NCBI GenBank assembly: GCA_964529415.1
Contig: CAZGWD010000013.1
Span: 29,466-93,465 of the forward strand
DNA length: 64,000 nt
Direction: 5' to 3'
Source: an uncultured Leptospirales bacterium
GTDB taxonomy: Bacteria; Spirochaetota; UBA4802; UBA5550
A program made the translations under genes and the position numbers. Position 1 is the stretch's first letter; every line of letters starts with the position of its first letter. The notes under the pieces are model-generated. The model saw only the letters and a list, made by a program, of their open reading frames with translations. It searched no databases and was not told the DNA's origin. Positions 2,115 through 53,550 of this stretch are shown in pieces.

Positions 2115-4094
2115 TTGGATTTACATAATCTTGATGAACTTATAGTAGAAGATAATCCGCTGCTTACTGATGAATTCGGTGAACTGAAATATAAAGTTGC
2201 GACTTATTTTTCTGATGGATTAAAGGAAACTATTTTTTCAGGCCCGACCATTCACCCTGTAATCAAAATTTATTATCTGGCGCGTATTGAATCATTGCGC
2301 GCCGAGGCAGGTCTGCCGGCACTTACGGAAACAGAAACGGAAGGGATTATAGCTCAGGCTGTAGATCTGGTTATAGAACGCAATATGGTATATATCCGGT
2401 CATCAGCAAGAAGCATGAATCAGGCCTTCCGCGCAGATGCTTATCTGCAGAGTATCGGGATTCCGCGTTCTTCTGTGCGTTTTATTGACGTATATAACGA
2501 TGATGTTCGTGGTGCCATCAAGAGGCGTGGGGAAATCTGGCGGCTTCAGGAAACTCCAAAATCTTCAGAAGAGATTATTTCCTTTATCAACTCCTCGCGC
2601 ATCCAGCTTGGAGCCAAAACTGTGTATTACTATTCGCGCACAACCGGCGTTAAGTATCTGACATGTGCAGAGTTTATGAAAATCGAAAGACTGCCGGAAG
2701 CTGATATACGCGCATGTCTTGAGGAGATTAAGGATTTATCTGCGCGCAGGATTGAAGACGGGAGCCCTGCGGTTGTTTTTTTCAAGGCGCATAATTTTGG
2801 AAATTATAATTTTAAGGCCTTTGACTTTTCAGCTGCGGATTCACATATGATGAACCATTATAATCTTTTAAAGAAAAATTTTGTTATGTCTGCAGAACAG
2901 TATTTTCGGGAGGATAATTGTAATGATCCTGTATGGCAGGCTGAAATGTTTCAATGTCTTATCGGAGCCGGCAGGGATGAAAACGGACATCGGCGTCTTG
3001 AGGAGGATATTGTTGGGCTGTCAGATGAATTCCATTCCAGGGTGACATGGCTGCCGGGATGTTCAATCAATGGTGACGAACCGATGTTTGACGCGGCATT
3101 TGACTCTGCTGAATTTGAAAAAGATGATGTCATCCGGAGGCTCCTGGACCGGAATGTCATGGGTATTATAAAGAACTTTGTTAATGCAGTGCCGGGCATT
3201 GAGTATATCAATGTAGCCCGCATTGAAAGCACTCTTTCAAAACGCGCATCGAGAAAGATTATCATGCCTGGAAGACGATGCGTGTATATTGCAGTTTTTC
3301 ATCGAACCGGGGATATCGAGGAAACAGTTAAAGTTATCCGGTTTCAGAAACGTGATGTGTATTATTTTCTCGATAACGGGCTTGGGCTCAGGGAGGCAAT
3401 AGCTGCTTCGGAAAGCAACCGTACATTTGTAAACAAACGTCATGAAGCGTGTGTGCGCCTGGGGCTTAACCTTTCCAGTGTTGAGATCAGGAGCATCAAC
3501 GAATTTTATGACGGGGCCAATTTGAAATTTCGCGGGAAGGAAATTACAAGCTGTTATTATGAACGCGATTACGAGTTCGGCTATGCAACGGACAAGATTC
3601 CTGCGGACTGGTATCATGCTGAAAAGAATTCAACAGAGTTTGCAAAGCTTCTCGGCCGGACAGCAGCTGCGAGTTTTATTACGGGCCGGCTTTATGACGG
3701 CGAAGTCATTTTTGATGACGGTGACGAAATAGTGGTTGTAGACTTCGGGGGCGCGCCGCTTGATATTGTGATAACCGAAGGTACTGCTTCCTTTAATGAA
3801 TTGGACGTTCCGCTTTCTGAATTTGCTGTTGATTATGCCCAGTCTGTGATTAAACGCTCCGGACTGGTTCCTGACTTCGAACTGTTCAGGGACAGTTTTA
3901 TCGAGGCATTCATAACAAGATTTGTGGAAATTCAGAACGCATTTAGAAATAACAGAGCGGAATATGAAAGTCTTTTCGAGGATGATAAACCAGGAGACAA
4001 CTTTTATGAGAAATGGCAGCTGGCTCTGCGCAGGCTTGACGGCGCTGATGCACAGGAGCTTGCTTTTCTGATAATTAAAGAATGCGGACGATAA
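2115..4094 (+). CDS. hypothetical protein, possibly AceK-like (isocitrate dehydrogenase kinase/phosphatase family) kinase fold
   Basis: 659-aa ORF. Several segments resemble the E. coli AceK kinase region as I remember it. TVKVIRFQ matches VFKVIKDRF, SINEFYDG matches DTQEFENF, and AAASFITGRLYDGEVIFDDGDEIVVVDF matches [36 protein letters not shown]. Confidence 0.4.
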   Translation: MDLHNLDELIVEDNPLLTDEFGELKYKVATYFSDGLKETIFSGPTIHPVIKIYYLARIESLRAEAGLPALTETETEGIIAQAVDLVIERNMVYIRSSARSMNQAFRADAYLQSIGIPRSSVRFIDVYNDDVRGAIKRRGEIWRLQETPKSSEEIISFINSSRIQLGAKTVYYYSRTTGVKYLTCAEFMKIERLPEADIRACLEEIKDLSARRIEDGSPAVVFFKAHNFGNYNFKAFDFSAADSHMMNHYNLLKKNFVMSAEQYFREDNCNDPVWQAEMFQCLIGAGRDENGHRRLEEDIVGLSDEFHSRVTWLPGCSINGDEPMFDAAFDSAEFEKDDVIRRLLDRNVMGIIKNFVNAVPGIEYINVARIESTLSKRASRKIIMPGRRCVYIAVFHRTGDIEETVKVIRFQKRDVYYFLDNGLGLREAIAASESNRTFVNKRHEACVRLGLNLSSVEIRSINEFYDGANLKFRGKEITSCYYERDYEFGYATDKIPADWYHAEKNSTEFAKLLGRTAAASFITGRLYDGEVIFDDGDEIVVVDFGGAPLDIVITEGTASFNELDVPLSEFAVDYAQSVIKRSGLVPDFELFRDSFIEAFITRFVEIQNAFRNNRAEYESLFEDDKPGDNFYEKWQLALRRLDGADAQELAFLIIKECGR

Positions 4095-4185
4095 TTTTTT
4101 TAACAAAAATTTTAAATTTTTTTTGTCTGTTCGTATTAATAATAAAGGCTCATTTCTGATTCTTGGAAAAATGATATTCAATTAT

Positions 4186-4383
4186 CCCCCCGTCCCCCGA
4201 AGGGGGCGAGTTTAAAGAAATTTAATAAATTGAATTTCTGAAAAATATTGAAATTGAAATATTGAGTATCAAAAATGAAAATGAATAAAAAATATTTCAA
4301 ATATTACAAAAATGATAAAATATGCATTATCGATGAAGTAATTATTTATCACATTTTTTCGCCCCCTTTGGGGGACGGAGGGC
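4186..4383. repeat. intergenic element bracketed by 25-nt GC-hairpin inverted repeats (copy 1)
   Basis: The left arm ccccccgtcccccgaagggggcgag (4186-4210) matches the reverse complement of the right arm at 4358-4383. Each arm contains its own ccccc-gaa/ttt-ggggg hairpin. The interior is AT-rich with aatatt/ttgaaa repeats. Confidence 0.6.
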
Positions 4384-4464
4384 TTTAGGGTGACAGGGCA
4401 CTATAACTAAAAAATATAATAACCCCTAAGAATCAGGAAAGAGTAATAATAAACAGGATAAAAA

Positions 4465-5142
4465 ATGAAGAATAAAGCAGTAATATTATTAAGCGGAGGG
4501 CTTGATTCAGCAACTGTTGCAGGTATAGCCATTAGCGAAGATTTTGAGCTATACGCTTTATCATTTAATTACGGGCAGAGACATGGCATTGAGCTTGAGT
4601 GTTCCGGAAAAGTTGCAGCTTTTTTTAAAATTAAAAATCATATTACAATTGATATACCGGCTGAGATTTTTAATTCAGCTCTTGTTAAAAATTCAGGTAT
4701 AGCTGTGCCGAAATCGGGCTTGGATCCTTTAAAAATTCCTTCTACGTATGTGCCTGCAAGAAATATTCTTTTTCTTTCATATGCGCTTGCTGCTGCAGAG
4801 AGTTTCGGCGCATCAGATATTTTTATCGGGGCAAATGCAGTTGATTACAGCGGGTACCCTGACTGCAGACCGGAATTTTTTACTTCTTTCGAGAATATGG
4901 CAAATATAGGAACTAAAGCTGCAATCGAAGGTAAGCCGTTTAAAATTCATACCCCAATTATTGATTTAAAAAAAGCAGAGATTATTAAAAAAGGGATTTC
5001 ACTCGGAATCGACTATTCAATAACACACAGCTGTTATGATCCGGATGCATCGGGTCTGGCCTGCGGTGCCTGCGACAGCTGCATTCTGAGAAGAAACGGA
5101 TTTGCTGATGCCGGAATTCCTGATCCGACAAAATATATATGA
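4465..5142 (+). CDS. queC: 7-cyano-7-deazaguanine synthase
   Basis: PP-loop motif LLSGGLDSAT at the N-terminus and a C-terminal Zn-binding cysteine cluster (CGACDSC), at a typical QueC length. Confidence 0.9.
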   Translation: MKNKAVILLSGGLDSATVAGIAISEDFELYALSFNYGQRHGIELECSGKVAAFFKIKNHITIDIPAEIFNSALVKNSGIAVPKSGLDPLKIPSTYVPARNILFLSYALAAAESFGASDIFIGANAVDYSGYPDCRPEFFTSFENMANIGTKAAIEGKPFKIHTPIIDLKKAEIIKKGISLGIDYSITHSCYDPDASGLACGACDSCILRRNGFADAGIPDPTKYI

Positions 5143-12150: not shown

Positions 12151-12266
12151 TGTCGATTAATTTGAATTTCTTCGAAATTCGGTGTTATTCTGTCTTATAG
12201 CGATATAATTAGCTTTAATCATTTATAAACGCCTATAATTGATGTTGTTGATTTTATAAATCTGAT

Positions 12267-12320
12267 ATATTATTATCTTGTTAGCACTCGCTTTAATGAG
12301 TGCTAACAAGATAATAATAT
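12267..12320. promoter_or_regulatory. CIRCE-type HrcA operator upstream of groES
   Basis: A perfect 23-bp inverted repeat atattattatcttgTTAGCACTC / GAGTGCTAAcaagataataatat separated by an 8-nt spacer (gctttaat). It contains the canonical CIRCE half-sites, which usually flank an N9 spacer, and lies about 90 nt upstream of the groES start. Confidence 0.8.
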
Positions 12321-12407
12321 TTCGTGATATATTTTAAAAATGAGATTTAAATCACGTAAAAACATCTATTTATGTTTAAAATAATCAAAAAATTTTAGGA
12401 GGCTAAA

Positions 12408-24234: not shown

Positions 24235-24642
24235 GAACGCGGATGACGCGGATGATTATGATGATCGCGGATTTTTAAAGGATTTTAAGGGGTTTAGTAA
24301 TCCCCCCGTCCCCCAAAGGGGGCGAGTAGGAGTGGAATACAGGTGTTTTTTGAAAACCAAAGAAATATAGTACCTGCTTATATTTTTGAGCTTGTAGGAA
24401 ATCTATAAATCTATATGACAGAAACAAGATTGTATTTCTGATAAGTCTTGAAATAGAAACTTTGTGTATTGAAGTTGAATATGATAATATACGGTTTATA
24501 AATGAAGTTATAATTAATGACGTGCCCCCTTCGGGGGTCAGGGGGTTTTGAATAAAAAAAAGATATAAGAGGGCATGAGAATTTAATTGATAATTTTATT
24601 TTTATCTTAATAAATCATAAACAATCCGCGTCATCCGCGTTC
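24235..24642. mobile_element. MITE-like nested inverted-repeat element (copy 2 of the GC-hairpin element inside 19-bp perfect TIRs)
   Basis: Perfect 19-bp terminal inverted repeats gaacgcggatgacgcggat (24235-24253) and atccgcgtcatccgcgttc (24624-24642). Inside them, GC-hairpin arms at 24302-24326 and 24522-24545 are homologous to those at 4186-4210 and 4358-4383. No ORF. Confidence 0.45.
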
Positions 24643-35412: not shown

Positions 35413-35523
35413 CCCGATGTAATGCTTCGGTATCGGCCAATATAATTCATTCGATGTTTCTTCAATTATTTATTGACACCGTTTTTTTTCAATTATTCAT
35501 TATAATCTCCTGAGGGGATAATA

Positions 35524-36621: not shown

Positions 36622-36810
36622 TTTTTAAACATTCGCCTTTTTTGAAATTCAATTCCAACTGTCTGGAATGCTGTGTCATTACATAAAGCTGCTTGAAATC
36701 CATTTTTTCACTTAAAATTTATGTTGTCATTGCCGAAAAATTCATTCAAAGCATCCTCAATTATTTATTGACACTATTTTTTTCAAATATTAAAATATCC
36801 GAAATAAAAT

Positions 36811-42154: not shown

Positions 42155-44196
42155 GCACCCGAAGTCAGCTCCCGAGACTCAAGTTCATTCATGTTGCAAA
42201 GGGATTTCCCCGCGACCTTGAAAAAGATTATTATGAGGATTTTTTCCGTACATCCCTGCTGATCGTCCGTGTAGCTCTTATCCTCGGCATTGCCCTTTAT
42301 TCTCTTTTCGGCATTCTCGATATCTGGGTTGTTCCCCTGAATAAAAAAGCAGTATGGATTATCAGGTATGCGGTGGTATGTCCTATGCTGGGTGCAGCAT
42401 TGCTTCTGACCTATTTCGATATTTTTAAAAAGTACATGCAGGTCACTCTGTCTGCAGTCGGTTTTTTATCCGGATTCGGTATTGTGCTCATGATCGGATT
42501 TACTGCAGAAACGGAGCTCGGTTTTAAATTTTATTATGCAGGTCTGATGCTTGTTCTCATGTGGATATACGCACTTGTACGGCTCAGGTTTATTTATGCC
42601 ACGCTAATAAGCTGGGCAATTACTGTTTCCTATGAAATTGTAGCACTCGGTATTAATAAACTCCTCAGCACTCCTGATAATGTCACGGTCTTTATCAACA
42701 ATAACTTTTTTTTCATATCAGCCAACATAATAGGCATGTTTGCAAGCTTTACTATTGAATGGTATATGAGGAAGAATTATCTTCTGAGAATGGAAATCGA
42801 GAGATCGTATAATCTCAATAGAAAATATCTTGAAAACATCAGAGAAGGTCTTCTTCTCATAGATGACAGCTACACTATTCTTAATCAGTATTCTTCTTAT
42901 CTTCCCGTAATGTTCAGCAAAAATGAAATTGAGGGAATGAACTTTATTGATCTGGTAATGCCGGACCCGGAAAACATGAAACAGGAGAGAGCTGATCTCG
43001 AAAGATTTTTAAATTTTCTTTTTCATAATAAATCTGCAGATATTGACATGATCATGGATCTTAATCCGTTTGTAAACAGGCAGATCTATGTCAGTAACGG
43101 ATCCGTTGTAAAAGAACTTATCATCAATGCAGATTTTATCCGGATTCAGGATAGGGGCAGTGTAGAATTCGTCATGGCAATATTCCAGGACATGACTGAT
43201 ATAATGAAATTTGAAAAGCAGCTGGATGATCAGAAATCAAAACACCTGCAGGAAGTCGAAACAGTCACTGCAATACTCAGGTCCGGGCCGAAACTGTTCA
43301 GCGATTTTCTTAAAGAATCAGGAGAGATTCTTGATGATATCAGATCAAAAAGCAGCGACCTCGGCAGTTCAGAAACGCTTAATCATGTTTTCAGAGAGGC
43401 GCATTCACTAAAAGGTTCGGCAAAACATCTGGAGCTGAATCATATTTCTTCTACAGCGCATGCAATTGAAGATTTAATGGCGGAAATAAGAGACAGCTCC
43501 GGTTCCAACATAGCAGGGAAAAAATCTGAAATTGACAGGCTTATATCAGATCTCTTTAAAAACTTTGATGAACTAGGAACACTCATTGAAAAAATTTCCA
43601 TGTTCTCTAATCTCGGAAAAAGCAGAGCTGCTGAAAGTACGGAAAATCCGCTTAACGATTTTATTACATCCCTATATACGATGGTAAATAATCTTGCAAA
43701 AGAACTTGATAAAGATGTTCATCTGGTTATTGACAACAAGCTTACGGATGTTCCGTTTCTTGCTAAATTAAAAAATCCTATTATACATCTTATCCGGAAT
43801 TCTCTGGATCACGGGATTGAAGATAAATTTGAGAGACTGACATCAGGAAAAAATCAGACAGGAATAGTTTCAATATCTTTAAATGAAGATGCAGAGAAAT
43901 ATTATATTGAAATTTCTGATGACGGAGCAGGAATTGATTTTGATGCTGTGCGGAAGAAGGCTGAATTATTAGGCTTGCTGCCTTCCGGAGAAAAACCTGA
44001 AAAATCAGCACTTGTGAAGCTTTTATTCACTCCGAGTTTCAGTTCAAAAAACAAGGTAACTGAAATTTCAGGAAGGGGATACGGCCTGGATATTGTCAAG
44101 GTTGCAGTTGAAAGCCTTGGCGGGCAGATATCTGTTAAATCTGCCAGGGGTAAAGGTTCCAGGCTGATTATTTCTGTACCGAAAAATAATAGTTGA
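42151..44196 (+). CDS. membrane-bound CheA-like histidine kinase (6-TM sensor + Hpt + CheA-type HATPase; no CheW/P5 domain)
   Basis: Six N-terminal TM helices. The Hpt motif is FREAHSLKGSAKHLE. The CheA-P4-like ATPase has IHLIRNSLDHGIE, ISDDGAGID and GRGYGLDIV. The protein ends right after the ATPase. It overlaps the cheX stop (ATGA). Confidence 0.7.
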   Translation: MSTRSQLPRLKFIHVAKGFPRDLEKDYYEDFFRTSLLIVRVALILGIALYSLFGILDIWVVPLNKKAVWIIRYAVVCPMLGAALLLTYFDIFKKYMQVTLSAVGFLSGFGIVLMIGFTAETELGFKFYYAGLMLVLMWIYALVRLRFIYATLISWAITVSYEIVALGINKLLSTPDNVTVFINNNFFFISANIIGMFASFTIEWYMRKNYLLRMEIERSYNLNRKYLENIREGLLLIDDSYTILNQYSSYLPVMFSKNEIEGMNFIDLVMPDPENMKQERADLERFLNFLFHNKSADIDMIMDLNPFVNRQIYVSNGSVVKELIINADFIRIQDRGSVEFVMAIFQDMTDIMKFEKQLDDQKSKHLQEVETVTAILRSGPKLFSDFLKESGEILDDIRSKSSDLGSSETLNHVFREAHSLKGSAKHLELNHISSTAHAIEDLMAEIRDSSGSNIAGKKSEIDRLISDLFKNFDELGTLIEKISMFSNLGKSRAAESTENPLNDFITSLYTMVNNLAKELDKDVHLVIDNKLTDVPFLAKLKNPIIHLIRNSLDHGIEDKFERLTSGKNQTGIVSISLNEDAEKYYIEISDDGAGIDFDAVRKKAELLGLLPSGEKPEKSALVKLLFTPSFSSKNKVTEISGRGYGLDIVKVAVESLGGQISVKSARGKGSRLIISVPKNNS

Positions 44197-44221
44197 TAAA
44201 ACTATAAAAGGCAGTGAGTGC

Positions 44222-45664
44222 ATGACTATAAATGAAGAAAAAATTACAAGTCAGATAATGAAAAATTCGATCAGGTTTTCAGGTGAACTTGAAACGCTTT
44301 TTCATGAGGATTATTTTCTTAAATCTCTCGGCTCTGTAAGAAAGGCTCTTCTGCTTGCTTTTATTCTCTACGCATCTTTTGGTTTTCTCGATCTGATGAT
44401 TACGCCGCTTAGCAGCAGTCACACCTGGATTATCCGTTATGCAATTGTATGTCCTGTAATACTTGCTGCATATATAATGACTTATTTTGAAATATATGCC
44501 AGAATATCCCAGTATGTAATAAGCGCAGTTGCTCTAACTGCAGGATTCGGTATTCTCGGAATGATTTTTTTCGCTGTAGAAAAAGAAGGCAAACTGTATT
44601 ACTACGCAGGCCTGATCCTCGTAATAATGTGGAGCTATACGCTTGTCCGCATGAGATTCAGATATTCCACAATCACAAGCTGGACCATAGTTGCAGGTTA
44701 CGAATTGATGACTGTAGTTCTGCAGAATCTTGTTTCAACGCCGGATCTATACCCGAGTTTTATTAACAATAATTTCTTTTTTATTTCATCAAATATTATT
44801 GGAATGATGGCAGGTTATTACATTGAACTTTTCAGCAGAAAGGATTTTCTACAGCGCCTCCTGATTGCTGAAAAGCAGATAAAACTGACAGATGAAAGAA
44901 ACGAACTGAGTTCAAGAATGAATATGATGAACAAAGAACTTAATATGACCAGGATAATTCAGGAGCAGCTTATTCCGCTTGAACATCCGGGGGATTTTAT
45001 ATTTTCACTGTATAAGCCGATGGAGGCAGTTGGAGGAGATTTTTTCGATTTTATAAAATTCAGGGAACCTGACATAATTGGAATTTTCCTGAGCGATGTT
45101 TCAGGACATGGCGTACCTTCTGCTCTCATTACATCTATGGTGAAGGTTACTCTTCTTGAATCCAACAGATACAAGGATGATCCTGCAAAAATTCTGGCGC
45201 ATCTTAATGATCTTCTGGTGGGAATAAGCGGAGGGCATTTTATAACAGCATTTTACGGAGTTTTCGATATGAAGGAAAAAACTCTGGTTTATTCAAATGC
45301 AGGCCATTATCCGCCAATGCTGATTAGCGGAGGTGAGATATTGAATCTTGATAAGGCGTCAACTCTTCCCCTGGCAGTTTTATCCAATGATGAATTAACA
45401 AGCGGCAGTCAGATGTTTGAAAATGCCAGAGTAAAACTTCCGGATCAAGGGAAACTCTTTCTGTTTACAGACGGGCTTGTTGAGGCGAAAAATATTTTTA
45501 ATCCCCAGAATGATTTTTCGAGCATTCTTGACGGGATTTTACTTAAAAATATAGATCTTCCGGCAAAAGAGTTCATCAACGAGCTGTATAAAGAGCTAAT
45601 TTTATATAGAGGCTCTGAAAATTTTAATGATGATATCTGCATGATTGCTCTTGATCTGAACTGA
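44222..45664 (+). CDS. SiaA-like membrane PP2C (SpoIIE-type) phosphatase with the shared 6-TM sensor domain
   Basis: The N-terminal TM domain is paralogous to 42151 (IIRYAIVCP, YYAGLILVIMWSYTLVRMRF, FINNNFFFISSNIIGM). The C-terminal PP2C has LSDVSGHGVPSALIT and LFTDGLVEA. Confidence 0.7.
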   Translation: MTINEEKITSQIMKNSIRFSGELETLFHEDYFLKSLGSVRKALLLAFILYASFGFLDLMITPLSSSHTWIIRYAIVCPVILAAYIMTYFEIYARISQYVISAVALTAGFGILGMIFFAVEKEGKLYYYAGLILVIMWSYTLVRMRFRYSTITSWTIVAGYELMTVVLQNLVSTPDLYPSFINNNFFFISSNIIGMMAGYYIELFSRKDFLQRLLIAEKQIKLTDERNELSSRMNMMNKELNMTRIIQEQLIPLEHPGDFIFSLYKPMEAVGGDFFDFIKFREPDIIGIFLSDVSGHGVPSALITSMVKVTLLESNRYKDDPAKILAHLNDLLVGISGGHFITAFYGVFDMKEKTLVYSNAGHYPPMLISGGEILNLDKASTLPLAVLSNDELTSGSQMFENARVKLPDQGKLFLFTDGLVEAKNIFNPQNDFSSILDGILLKNIDLPAKEFINELYKELILYRGSENFNDDICMIALDLN

Positions 45665-48097: not shown

Positions 48098-49450
48098 ATG
48101 GCTGATAGCAGCAATATCGATCCGGAAAAAAAATTTTATAACAGCAATGATTTTAATGAATACCTTATAGGGATTATTCATGACTGGTCAAAAACTCTGA
48201 CTACTCTTGCCTATACGCTTGTTCCTCTTTTTTTTATACTCGATTATTTTACTATGCCCCGGGAGCTGCTTCCCCGCTTCGCGTTCTACCGGGTTATTGC
48301 AACCATTATTGCGCTGATCCAGTATATTGTAGTTAAAAATACAAAACCCAGTAAAATTTCATACGTTCACGGTTATCTTGTTTCATTGATTCTCGGCGGT
48401 GTAATTGCACTAATGACTGTTGATCTCGGAGGATTCAGTTCCGGCTATTATGCTGGACTAAATCTTGTTATAATAGGTGTGAATATTCTTCTTCCATGGG
48501 AGACTTACCATTCCGCCATCAACGGACTCATGACTATACTGATGTATGTTGTTCTTAATGTGGTTTTTGGCGGGAATTTTAATGCAAATGATTTAACCAG
48601 CAATCTTTTTTTTATGAACGCGACTGTTATAATCTCTGTAAGCATTAATCTTGTACGCAGCAAGCTCATAAAAAGAGAGTTCGCTCTGCGCTCGGAAGTT
48701 CAGAATGCAAGGGACGCCCTGTGGGGAGAAATGGAAGTAGCGAAAAAAATTCAGACATCGCTGCTTCCTAAAAATAAACGAATCGGCAGTTATGAAATGG
48801 CGGCACTTATGGAACCCGCAGCAGAAATTGGTGGCGATTACTACGATGCTGTTGAAACAAATGCAGGTGAAAACTGGGTTATGATAGGAGATGTTTCAGG
48901 TCATGGAGTTGAGTCAGGGCTTATTATGATGATGACACAAACGAGTATATTTTCAATTATCAATGACACCCCGGGACAACGTCCAATGAATGTAATTAAT
49001 AATGTTAATTCTGTTATCCGGAAAAATATTTCCAGACTTGGTTCAAACATGTATATGACCCTCTTTGCTATTAGACTTGAAAATGATTCTGTGATGCTGG
49101 CAGGAAAACATCAGGATATAATAATTTACAGGGCAAAGTCCGGAACAGTTGATGTAATACAGGTTCAGGGTACCTGGATCGGTCTTGCGGATGATATTGC
49201 TCCTTTTCTGAGTGATATAAAAATTGAAATTTTCGAAAACGATATCATGCTTCTTTTTACTGATGGAGTTACAGAAGCCATGAACGATAGTGGAGAAATG
49301 TTTAATCAGGACCGTCTCATTGCTTTATTTAAAATATATTCATCTTTATCTCCTGAAAATATTGTCAGGAATATTGCTGAAGACATAGGTAAATTCCAGA
49401 AAAAACAGTATGATGACATAACACTTATAGCACTGAAAAAAAACTATTAA
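48098..49450 (+). CDS. membrane PP2C (SpoIIE-type) phosphatase, divergent paralog
   Basis: The ORF is listed from 48041, overlapping the previous gene by 20 nt. The ATG at 48098 (MADSSNID) is preferred. There are six TM helices (YYAGLNLVII) and a PP2C with IGDVSGHGVESGLIM and LFTDGVTEA. Confidence 0.65.
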   Translation: MADSSNIDPEKKFYNSNDFNEYLIGIIHDWSKTLTTLAYTLVPLFFILDYFTMPRELLPRFAFYRVIATIIALIQYIVVKNTKPSKISYVHGYLVSLILGGVIALMTVDLGGFSSGYYAGLNLVIIGVNILLPWETYHSAINGLMTILMYVVLNVVFGGNFNANDLTSNLFFMNATVIISVSINLVRSKLIKREFALRSEVQNARDALWGEMEVAKKIQTSLLPKNKRIGSYEMAALMEPAAEIGGDYYDAVETNAGENWVMIGDVSGHGVESGLIMMMTQTSIFSIINDTPGQRPMNVINNVNSVIRKNISRLGSNMYMTLFAIRLENDSVMLAGKHQDIIIYRAKSGTVDVIQVQGTWIGLADDIAPFLSDIKIEIFENDIMLLFTDGVTEAMNDSGEMFNQDRLIALFKIYSSLSPENIVRNIAEDIGKFQKKQYDDITLIALKKNY

Positions 49451-52107: not shown

Positions 52108-53550
52108 ATGAAAACAGAATATTTAATATCCAAATCCGGATCCAAATTTTCTATGAAATTTTCCAGGGAACTTGAATCTGATTTTGAGAACTTTTATTTT
52201 GAAAAATCAATCCTGACAACAAGAATAGCACTTATACTTGGAGCAGTTTTATATTCGCTTTTTGCGTTTCTTGATATCTTGATTGCTCCAATTGAAATTC
52301 ATAAAATCTGGATTATTCGTTTTCTGATAGTGGTTCCGCTGCTTGTTCTTTTATTCGCAGCAAGTTTTTTTAATGCTTTCAGGAAATATATGCAGTCATT
52401 GACAGCTTTGGTTTCAATGGCTGCAGGACTCGGGATTCTGGCAATAATATCAATAGCTTCTGAAGCGGAAGGCAAGTTCTATTATTATGCAGGTTTGATT
52501 CTTGTTATAATGTGGACCTACACCCTGGTCCGCCTCCGCTTTATTTATGCAACAGCAGTATGCTGGATTCTTGTTATTATTTATGAATTGATCAATTTAT
52601 TTTATTTTCAGGTGTTTGAAACAGGCGATACGCGCAAGATTTTTTTTAACAATAACTTTTTTTTTATTTCATCAAATATTATAGGCATGTTTGCAGGATA
52701 TTTACTGGAACTATATACAAGAAATGATTTCCTGTATAAAATTAAACTTTCTGAAAAGCAGAAAGAACTGCAGAAAGACCGCGATGAGTTGAAAGCCAAC
52801 AATGAGCGTTTCCAGAGCGATCTGGAAATGGCAAGATCGCTTCAGGAATATCTTCTGCCAATGAAAAGCCCTTATCCTTTCATAAATTTTCTTTATAAAC
52901 CCATGGAAGAGGTAGGCGGGGATTTATACGATTTTATTGCATTTAATGACGGTGAAAGAATCGGGTTATTCATCAGCGATGTTTCCGGCCATGGGGTGCC
53001 TTCTGCATTTATCACTGCAATGATTATTACCGCAATTCACGACCTGGACGAAATAAAACATAATCCTGCTGAATTTCTTCTCAGGCTCAATGATGCTCTT
53101 CATAATCTGATAGAGGAACATTATGCCACTGCTTTTTACGGAATATATAACCTGAAAGAAAAGAATCTTGTATATTCAAATGCCGGACATCCACCGCCTA
53201 TACTTTTTTCAAATGGAGTAATTAAATTGATCGAAGGCGGAAAGAGCAAACCACTTGGAATTTTTGATTCGGATACGCTGAAAAAAATGAATTCTCATTA
53301 TAACAACGCTGAAATAAAATTTCAGTCAGGTGACAGAATACTCATTTATACAGACGGTATTATTGATGCAAAAAATGTAGTCACCCGGGAAAGGTATTCC
53401 AGTATATTAGCAGATAGAATTATTGATTTTTCAGGTCTTTCTTCTAATGAGTTTCTTCAGATCTTATTCAATGATATTATTTCATTCAGCGGAAATAATA
53501 AACTTGATGATGATATATGCATGATGTGTCTTGATGTAGAGAAAGAATAA
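52108..53550 (+). CDS. SiaA-like membrane PP2C phosphatase with the shared 6-TM sensor domain (third paralog)
   Basis: The N-terminal TM domain matches 42151 and 44222 (YYYAGLILVIMWTYTLVRLRFIYAT, FFNNNFFFISSNIIGMFAGY). The PP2C has ISDVSGHGVPSAFIT and IYTDGIIDA. Confidence 0.7.
   Translation: MKTEYLISKSGSKFSMKFSRELESDFENFYFEKSILTTRIALILGAVLYSLFAFLDILIAPIEIHKIWIIRFLIVVPLLVLLFAASFFNAFRKYMQSLTALVSMAAGLGILAIISIASEAEGKFYYYAGLILVIMWTYTLVRLRFIYATAVCWILVIIYELINLFYFQVFETGDTRKIFFNNNFFFISSNIIGMFAGYLLELYTRNDFLYKIKLSEKQKELQKDRDELKANNERFQSDLEMARSLQEYLLPMKSPYPFINFLYKPMEEVGGDLYDFIAFNDGERIGLFISDVSGHGVPSAFITAMIITAIHDLDEIKHNPAEFLLRLNDALHNLIEEHYATAFYGIYNLKEKNLVYSNAGHPPPILFSNGVIKLIEGGKSKPLGIFDSDTLKKMNSHYNNAEIKFQSGDRILIYTDGIIDAKNVVTRERYSSILADRIIDFSGLSSNEFLQILFNDIISFSGNNKLDDDICMMCLDVEKE

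Follow-up and report, generated by a model that had tools for sequence, protein, structure and literature searches.

Two GC-hairpin elements in a Leptospirales contig

We analyzed a 64,000-nt stretch of DNA (hereafter, the window) from an uncultured Leptospirales bacterium (assembly GCA_964529415.1, contig CAZGWD010000013.1, positions 29,466 to 93,465 of the forward strand), in which two intergenic elements, copy 1 and copy 2, are each bracketed by a GC-rich hairpin arm and its inverted copy. Our subject is the origin of these elements, whose interiors appear to be relics of a small gene of the DUF559 (PF04480) endonuclease family. Copy 1 lies between a 659-aa open reading frame (ORF) without a Pfam match (2115-4094) and queC (4465-5142). 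Copy 2 is flanked by two convergent genes, a 153-aa ORF and a gene for a tetratricopeptide repeat protein.

A preliminary description of this DNA had noted a GC arm and its inverted copy around an AT-rich interior upstream of queC, with the arm recurring at 24302-24326 and 24522-24545; both observations hold, and all four arms are real. The left arm of copy 1, CCCCCCGTCCCCCGAAGGGGGCGAG, is exact at 4186-4210 (plus strand) and recurs at 4358-4382 (minus strand, three mismatches) and 24302-24326 (plus strand, one mismatch). The fourth arm, at 24522-24545 (minus strand), is more diverged, but its reverse complement, CCCCCTGACCCCCGAAGGGGGCAC, fits the family pattern. A shuffled-sequence control predicted 0 arm matches, and CCCCCNNNGGGGG is present in the window at the four arm positions only. 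The arms are 72-84% GC, compared with 36.6% for the window and 15% for the interior of copy 1 (4211-4357). The preliminary description had thus seen the arms; it missed both the outer layer of copy 1 and the identity of the unit between the arms as an endonuclease cassette. Copy 1 has the following parts.

4139-4146, no strand: left copy of the target-site duplication (TSD), ATAATAAA, identical to 4446-4453
4147-4445, plus strand: copy 1 as a whole, a 299-bp MITE (miniature inverted-repeat transposable element) with outer terminal inverted repeats (TIRs), inner GC-hairpin arms and a core that is a putative DUF559 relic
4147-4170, plus strand: left outer TIR, GGCTCATTTCTGATTCTTGGAAAA, with four substitutions relative to GGCTCATTCCGGATTTTTGGGAAA, the TIR consensus of CAZBFP01, a Leptospirales metagenome-assembled genome (MAG)
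4186-4210, plus strand: left arm, a C-run tail plus GC hairpin (CCCCCC-GT-CCCCC-GAA-GGGGG-CG)
4231-4346, plus strand: interior of copy 1, a putative decayed DUF559 relic (nhmmer with arms masked, E 0.011, profile positions 275-391)
4358-4382, minus strand: right arm, an inverted copy with three mismatches
4423-4445, minus strand: right outer TIR, CCCCTAAGAATCAGGAAAGAGTA, whose reverse complement, TACTCTTTCCTGATTCTTAGGGG, pairs with 4147-4170
4446-4453, no strand: right copy of the TSD, ATAATAAA, 11 nt before the queC ATG at 4465

Copy 1 is a recent MITE insertion upstream of queC

The outer TIRs of copy 1 pair at about 16 of their 20 terminal positions (counted by eye), and the 299 bp between the TSDs contain no ORF other than mechanical ones. 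In two relatives with the same gene order (L214 and L215), whose QueC proteins are 93% and 87% identical, the site is empty: the spacer is 65 nt long and holds a single 8-mer related to ATAATAAA. Copy 1 inserted into this 65-nt spacer and duplicated 8 bp. Because the site is empty in close relatives, the insertion is recent, postdating the split from both of them, and the element is not a conserved regulator of queC. The GC hairpins upstream of queC are mobile-DNA debris and neither a riboswitch nor a conserved regulator. In agreement with the preliminary description, which had looked for a preQ1 riboswitch here and found none, 4050-4520 has no Rfam preQ1 match even at E up to 10; the matches obtained at that cutoff are chance matches to long hairpins.

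The same outer layer is found in CAZBFP01, where the arm-bounded unit sits within a repeat of about 330 bp with its own TIRs (GGCTCATTCCGGATTTTTGGGAAA...). Four aligned CAZBFP01 copies bearing the TIR of copy 1 are flanked by 8-bp TSDs. The fetched CAZBFP01 loci contain 23 TIR matches, and this TIR type also occurs in DAONFG copies. The earlier reading of the element as REP/MITE-like was therefore right about a mobile repeat family; it is the outer TIRs with their 8-bp TSD, however, and not the arms, that are the transposing termini of copy 1. With its TIRs, 8-bp AT-rich TSD, lack of an ORF, empty site and multiple copies in a related MAG, copy 1 resembles other bacterial MITEs. It differs from them in holding a nested second palindromic module, the putative DUF559 cassette relic, and in that searches gave no autonomous insertion sequence (IS) sharing its ends: the fetched loci contain no TIR pair at IS length, and BLAST of the outer TIR against plasmids gave chance matches only. 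As an unconfirmed lead, the MITE is possibly derived from the ISL3 family, which we take to have ends of the form GGCTCTT... and 8-bp duplications.

When folded as a single strand, as proposed with the preliminary description, copy 1 forms nested stems with a dG of -100.8 kcal/mol, a z score of -9.5 relative to shuffled sequence.

The other relic, copy 2, has a palindromic context different from that of copy 1. Its parts are as follows.

24235-24253, plus strand: left outer inverted repeat, GAACGCGGATGACGCGGAT, part of a perfect 19-nt inverted repeat
24302-24326, plus strand: left arm, one mismatch
24371-24512, plus strand: putative DUF559 relic with N- and C-terminal remnants (nhmmer, protein hidden Markov model [HMM] and tblastn)
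24522-24545, minus strand: right arm, a T..A variant, reverse complement CCCCCTGACCCCCGAAGGGGGCAC
24624-24642, minus strand: right outer inverted repeat, partner of 24235-24253

The 19-nt outer repeat has no further occurrence in the window and none in any of the fetched loci, and no clear target duplication is seen at copy 2. A wider, 49-nt imperfect inverted repeat surrounds the 19-nt core (GAACGCGGATGACGCGGAT). The 465-nt spacer between the convergent genes forms, as a whole, one large palindrome (24205-24253/24624-24672). CGCGGAT occurs three times on its left side, and its inner part (GATGATCGCGGATTTTTAAAGG) is similar to the core of the copy 1 TIR; the outer palindrome of copy 2 may be a diverged outer TIR.

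The interiors match a DUF559 endonuclease cassette

The interior of copy 2 had been described as unrelated to that of copy 1. This proved to be wrong: the two can be aligned in one orientation, and the similarity is clearest over the 50 nt adjoining the right arm. A DNA profile was built from seven full-length DUF559 cassette interiors and run with nhmmer against the 64 kb with the arms masked. The three best matches were 24414-24482 (E 0.0011), 4231-4346 (E 0.011) and 24371-24423 (E 0.25, not significant alone), all of them on the plus strand, collinear and between arms. Because matches obtained with the arms masked fall collinearly between the arms, we read both interiors as decayed, internally deleted DUF559 genes. 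At the protein level, copy 2 matched the HMM at positions 76-112 (E 0.42) and was matched by tblastn at 24414-24512 (E 0.26), and copy 1 gave no HMM match. From these sequence comparisons, it is well supported that both interiors are DUF559 relics, consisting of AT-rich remnants of the N and C termini between arms that are near the family consensus.

The intact form of the cassette is found in other genomes. A full cassette consists of an arm (about 23-25 nt), about 27 nt to an ATG, a 119-aa ORF, about 14 nt after the stop codon and an inverted arm. Intact 118- to 119-aa homologs occur between the same arms at constant spacing in L114, L120 and L125 (L numbers denote fetched loci), and intact cassettes are inserted among co-directional polysaccharide-biosynthesis genes. 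The 415-nt interiors of L073 and L026 are near-full-length DUF559 genes, each interrupted by one stop or frameshift, and match Pfam DUF559 at E 1.5e-25 and 3.3e-29, respectively. About 25 loci, including one Bacteroidaceae locus, carry N- or C-terminal DUF559 remnants within arm pairs, as detected by protein HMM and tblastn. Every full-length gene between arms is a DUF559 gene.

Across 32 homologs, the catalytic residues D..ExD..H..D do not vary. A profile of the DUF559 proteins matched PDB entry 3HRL at E 1e-24 and the homing endonuclease I-Bth0305I (3R3P) at E 0.0014, and the cassette protein is a full-length homolog of E. coli YcjD (E 2.6e-24). A search of the cassette family with PADLOC returned weak partial matches only, to DpdF and a methyl-directed restriction endonuclease, and membership in a defense system was set aside on that account. 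The orientation of DUF559 genes relative to their neighbors has a mild co-directional bias (upstream, 32 versus 20; downstream, 45 versus 17), which was left unused because the ORF caller is noisy. A sigma-70-like sequence in the CAZBFP01 core, TTGAGC-17-TATTAA, was rejected as a promoter candidate; it corresponds to the 5′ untranslated region and first codons of the DUF559 relic.

The arm is a conserved hairpin shared across phyla

An exact-pattern scan with one genome per species yielded at least 112 stretches that contain the arm, drawn from over 30 genomes. This copy count beyond the window bears out the suggestion in the preliminary description of a repeated, mobile family. The fetched loci of CAZBFP01 alone contain 47 arms. 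The arm is also present in other Spirochaetota MAGs, in a Chitinispirillaceae MAG and in many Bacteroidota, including Flaviaesturariibacter isolates, rumen Bacteroidaceae and Prevotellaceae, and Flavobacteriaceae; a 23-nt arm is thus conserved across Spirochaetota, Bacteroidota and a Chitinispirillaceae MAG. Arms are extragenic and occur singly, as tight inverted doublets (e.g., L021, L212 and L004) and as pairs 150-400 nt apart. Among 2.9 million viral contigs, there was a single match, on which carriage of the arm by phages was rejected. All-against-all clustering of 1677 ORFs from 112 loci revealed no transposase, REP-associated tyrosine transposase (RAYT; REP, repetitive extragenic palindromic) or recombinase that recurs beside the arms, only generic large families.

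The arm follows the pattern CCCCC-Y-G-W-CCCCC-loop-GGGGG-C-R, in which an A/T is bulged and the 5′ tail is a C-run. The Y and R positions form a Watson-Crick pair in 135 of 138 arms (48 C:G and 87 T:A), and both states are found in both phyla and inside the window. This covariation indicates that the conserved structure is the hairpin of each arm and not arm-arm pairing, in support of the preliminary view that each arm is itself a hairpin.

Several variations on the arm were observed. In rumen Bacteroidaceae and Prevotellaceae MAGs (L039, L042, L078, L090, L012, L036 and L076), elements with an extended arm, AGCCCCCCGACCCCCGAAGGGGGCGGCCATCCGG, span entire intergenic spacers. On the left, the arm directly follows the upstream stop codon (TAG|CCCCCC); on the right, 4-9 nt remain between the arm and the next ATG, so that its GGGGGG falls at the Shine–Dalgarno position. 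A second hairpin family, CCCCCTAAATCCCCC-GGA-GGGGGACTT, adjoins the first at three CAZBFP01 loci, L009 (3300-3400), L032 (5630-5670) and L014, and in metagenomes it flanks a different DUF559 clade (compare L131, L133, L135 and L137). Since the second family lies beside the first in CAZBFP01, one genome can hold two arm families. Tandem direct arm copies with 10- to 25-nt spacers occur at L120 (2915-2972), L073 (1419-1490), L034 (120-200) and L023 (5040-5210); each retains the first 10-12 nt of the inner flank, which suggests local duplication of the arm with its flank. A short GC-rich repeat, ..CATTGCGAGG..GCGACAAAGC(A/G)AT.., lies beside arms in two unrelated Spirochaetota contigs (L207, 3590-3640; L027, 3790-3820) and may represent a further small repeat family.

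The cassette is gained, lost and inverted

One orthologous site, between a radical S-adenosylmethionine/SPASM gene and a gene for a 191-aa protein, was found in several states of occupancy. It is empty in L210, with a 44-nt spacer; L207 has a solo arm; L212 has an arm doublet alone, with 24 nt between the arms; and L120 has both arms, an intact gene and an extra tandem arm. Where the site is occupied, the host ORF continues into the arm, and no target duplication is visible. Arms in Bacteroidota often follow AG and abut stop codons. These comparisons show that the unit of gene plus arms has been gained, lost and miniaturized at orthologous sites.

Inversion was seen among the CAZBFP01 paralogs. 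In four of about 13 typed (L017, L064, L092 and L109), the same asymmetric flanks enclose the core in inverted orientation. The junction counts are X-B 8 and Y-A 6 versus X-A 3 and Y-B 2, and L017 is inverted at both junctions. This shows that arm-arm recombination has occurred at least once; it does not demonstrate a programmed switch.

Hairpin repeats flank DUF559 genes elsewhere, including E. coli ycjD

We examined 69 metagenomic DUF559 loci for which both flanks were available (GC content, 32-72%), using a threshold of at least 15/18 for an inverted repeat between the flanks. Such repeats were present at 36 of the 69 loci, compared with 22 of 300 mismatched flank pairs and none of 33 neighboring ORFs on the same contigs, which shows that flanking hairpin repeats are specific to DUF559 genes relative to their neighbors. 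Arm sequences are lineage specific; what is shared is an architecture of a C-rich tail followed by a C-run/G-run hairpin.

The ycjD ORF of E. coli K-12 reads on into an arm made of a C-run and a hairpin; downstream of it, a duplicated copy of the 3′ end of ycjD, now a relic, lies between two arms in inverted orientation. All 5426 E. coli genomes have the arm-like repeat, the median number of places per genome being 18, and ycjD is single-copy and present in 3378 of them. The repeat is probably of the BoxC family, its copy number being the one point of agreement with PMC2267715. The E. coli system (YcjD, NCBIfam PRK09767) shares with the window elements a homologous nuclease, a C-run plus hairpin arm and a dispersed repeat. 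It differs in the sequence of the arm, CCCCTCACCC-TAA-CCCTCTCCCC-AGA-GGGGCGAGGGG, and on the 5′ side of ycjD, which has an unrelated AT-rich hairpin. There, at 1351760-1351810 of K-12 (NC_000913.3; L126), a perfect 17-bp hairpin, TCACCTCATTCTGACAA ... TTGTCAGAATGAGGTGA, lies directly upstream of the ycjD start and overlaps it; it is unrelated to the GC-rich 3′ arm.

A probable two-layer element and the alternatives

We propose, at a probability of roughly 70%, that the feature is the core of a two-layer, nonautonomous element, in which a relic of a DUF559 cassette lies within a MITE and the arms are sites of the nuclease. Both layers are seen in the sequence comparisons above: the inner one is a decayed copy of a small DUF559 cassette bounded by arms, and the outer one, in copy 1, is the MITE that encloses this relic with TIRs of its own. 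The arms would serve as cognate DNA sites at or near which the nuclease, supplied in cis or in trans, nicks; nicking followed by host repair could then lead to copying, deletion or inversion of the DNA between or beside the arms, in analogy to REPs and their paired form, the REPIN (REP doublet forming hairpins), with their RAYT, or to a free-standing homing endonuclease. Recognition and nicking of the arms by the nuclease is plausible, although unproven. Both copies in the window are probably inert passengers; their sole plausible effect is a strong nested hairpin in transcripts that read into queC. The window element is, in short, a MITE that carries a dead passenger, and objects of this kind are ordinary.

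Several points weigh against this proposal. A PD-(D/E)XK nuclease alone cannot carry out strand transfer, so that solo arms depend on recombination or replication by the host to spread. The arm-bounded cassette has no target duplication, fixed target or consistent direct repeats, and the outer MITE alone can explain the high copy number in CAZBFP01. In the window, there is no intact DUF559 gene, and the protein-level matches (E 0.26-0.42) are weak alone. The Y..R covariation could partly stem from two ancestral haplotypes and not from repeated compensatory change. In E. coli, the repeat is kept in every genome, including those that lack ycjD. Finally, no paper on an interaction between any DUF559 protein and such arms was found in the searchable literature.

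The inversions raise the question of whether the arms are instead the inverted repeats of an inverton, whose segment is flipped by a recombinase encoded elsewhere, altering queC expression. Copy 1 is directly upstream of the queC ribosome-binding site, the core occurs in both orientations against the same asymmetric flanks among the CAZBFP01 paralogs, and DUF559 domain-containing proteins were 14-fold enriched among predicted targets of programmed inversion in a published screen (PMC9881135). That enrichment fits genes that are bracketed by inverted repeats. The orientation evidence is from paralogs and not from both orientations at one locus, and the same pattern would arise from a few inversions at 23-bp perfect repeats followed by MITE copying. 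Moreover, no recombinase gene recurs beside the arms in the 112 loci, the element is missing upstream of queC in close relatives, and the interior is apparently a pseudogene relic with no conserved promoter module (four promoter-like matches versus 2.7 expected). We therefore consider an inverton unlikely. An action at the level of RNA, whether as a terminator, an insulator, an mRNA-stabilizing hairpin or a small RNA gene, also seems improbable, although the preliminary description had suggested a role in transcription or RNA stability and the element has features that would suit one: each arm is a stable GC hairpin with a covarying stem, the whole of copy 1 folds far better than shuffled sequence (z -9.5), the rumen Bacteroidales elements extend from a stop codon to within 4-9 nt of the next start, and intact cassettes lie inside co-directional operons. 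Against it, the hairpins are not followed by a U-tract, and a terminator scan returned no site at copy 1 and a single marginal one, 24526-24545, at copy 2. Promoter matches are at background. Rfam gave no match for the window at the gathering threshold, chance matches to long hairpins only for 4050-4520 at E up to 10, and nothing at the arms of eight related loci. The element is missing at the orthologous site in relatives, and its interior reads as decaying coding sequence. Any effect on RNA would be a by-product and would not account for the nuclease gene that the arms always enclose.

It is also conceivable that the arms are ordinary REPs or REPINs mobilized by a RAYT, which is a Y1 HUH transposase, and that the link to DUF559 is incidental. 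As extragenic, short, GC-rich imperfect palindromes that occur singly and as inverted doublets, the arms have the general appearance of REPs. They nevertheless lack the GTAG tag, their tail being CCCCC-Y-G-W; no family resembling Y1 transposases recurs near them; the gene between them is DUF559 in every full-length case; and inverted repeats flank 36 of 69 DUF559 genes and none of 33 neighbors. Together, these observations make mobilization by a RAYT very improbable.

Returning to the DUF559 nuclease as the partner of the arms, we put forward a broader idea, tentatively and at somewhat less than even odds: that DUF559 (YcjD-like, Vsr-fold) nucleases and C-run/GC-hairpin repeats form a widespread partnership analogous to REP and RAYT, with the nuclease acting on the arm through nicking and host repair, and that this partnership extends over Spirochaetota, Bacteroidota, Proteobacteria (E. 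coli ycjD with its BoxC-like repeat) and others. DUF559/YcjD is a very common family of no known function, and orphan palindromic repeats such as E. coli BoxC and the CGTC-tagged REPs have no known mobilizing enzyme. If the partnership is real, it would provide a function for the former and an origin for repeat families that lack a transposase. The window result is mostly clarifying, and the wider DUF559-repeat pattern is of more interest: the bracketing of DUF559 genes, with gain and loss of the cassette, yields a testable hypothesis that joins both puzzles, for which E. coli ycjD and its repeat are a ready model. Our literature searches, to which most subscription papers were inaccessible, returned no description linking DUF559, ycjD or COG2852 to hairpin repeats.

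Relation to known systems

The arms and their nuclease share with REP/REPIN-RAYT systems short, GC-rich repeats that form a hairpin and have an unpaired tag or tail, present singly and as inverted doublets, and one protein gene between inverted copies with more copies dispersed between genes (in E. coli, one ycjD and about 18 repeats). The partner here is a PD-(D/E)XK Vsr-like nuclease in place of an HUH Y1 transposase, and the arm tail is a C-run without GTAG. REPs are usually species specific, unlike the 23-nt arm, which crosses phyla.

The homing endonucleases of the Vsr-like EDxHD family, free-standing or intron-borne (I-Bth0305I, PDB 3R3P), have a homologous catalytic domain, as indicated by the profile match at E 0.0014, and VSR, DUF559 and 3r3p have been grouped together (PMC3424549). 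Like homing endonuclease genes, the cassette is a small gene present or absent at otherwise syntenic sites; in contrast to them, it lies outside introns and inteins, has no known cleavage target and is bracketed by hairpin repeats that are also found alone at many nonhomologous sites.

CGTC-tagged REPs, which "apparently lack a dedicated transposase" (Di Nocera et al. 2013, PMC3733652), consist of a hairpin after a CGTC or TGTC tag, a feature echoed by the C-Y-G-W-C of the arms, and are mostly head-to-head dimers. Their stems are 8-9 bp and start with A/T pairs, their loops are 4-5 nt, they have CCA tails and they are mainly alphaproteobacterial. The arms instead have a C5/G5 stem, a 3-nt loop and a 5′ C-run tail, and their W is often A, so that the resemblance is limited to the C/TGTC tag.

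Additional observations

Three further features of the window, and one of a related locus, were recorded. At 12264-12323, a 26-nt inverted repeat (96% complementary, 8-nt spacer; GATATATTATTATCTTGTTAGCACTC/GAGTGCTAACAAGATAATAATATTTC) has the look of an operator or terminator. A 50-nt direct repeat, 82% identical and containing TTATTGACAC followed by a T-run, occurs at 35444-35493 and 36739-36788 and may be a promoter or operator shared by two neighboring genes that lie downstream of it. Three paralogous genes, at 42472-45321, 48446-48926 and 52482-53204, have blocks of 65-83% DNA identity and a GATGTTTCAGGxCATGG motif; we read the motif as DVSGHG, which we take to be typical of PP2C/SpoIIE-type phosphatases. 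The rumen Bacteroidaceae locus L078, which carries arm elements, contains a cobalamin riboswitch at 1272-1486 (85.9 bits) that is unrelated to the arms.

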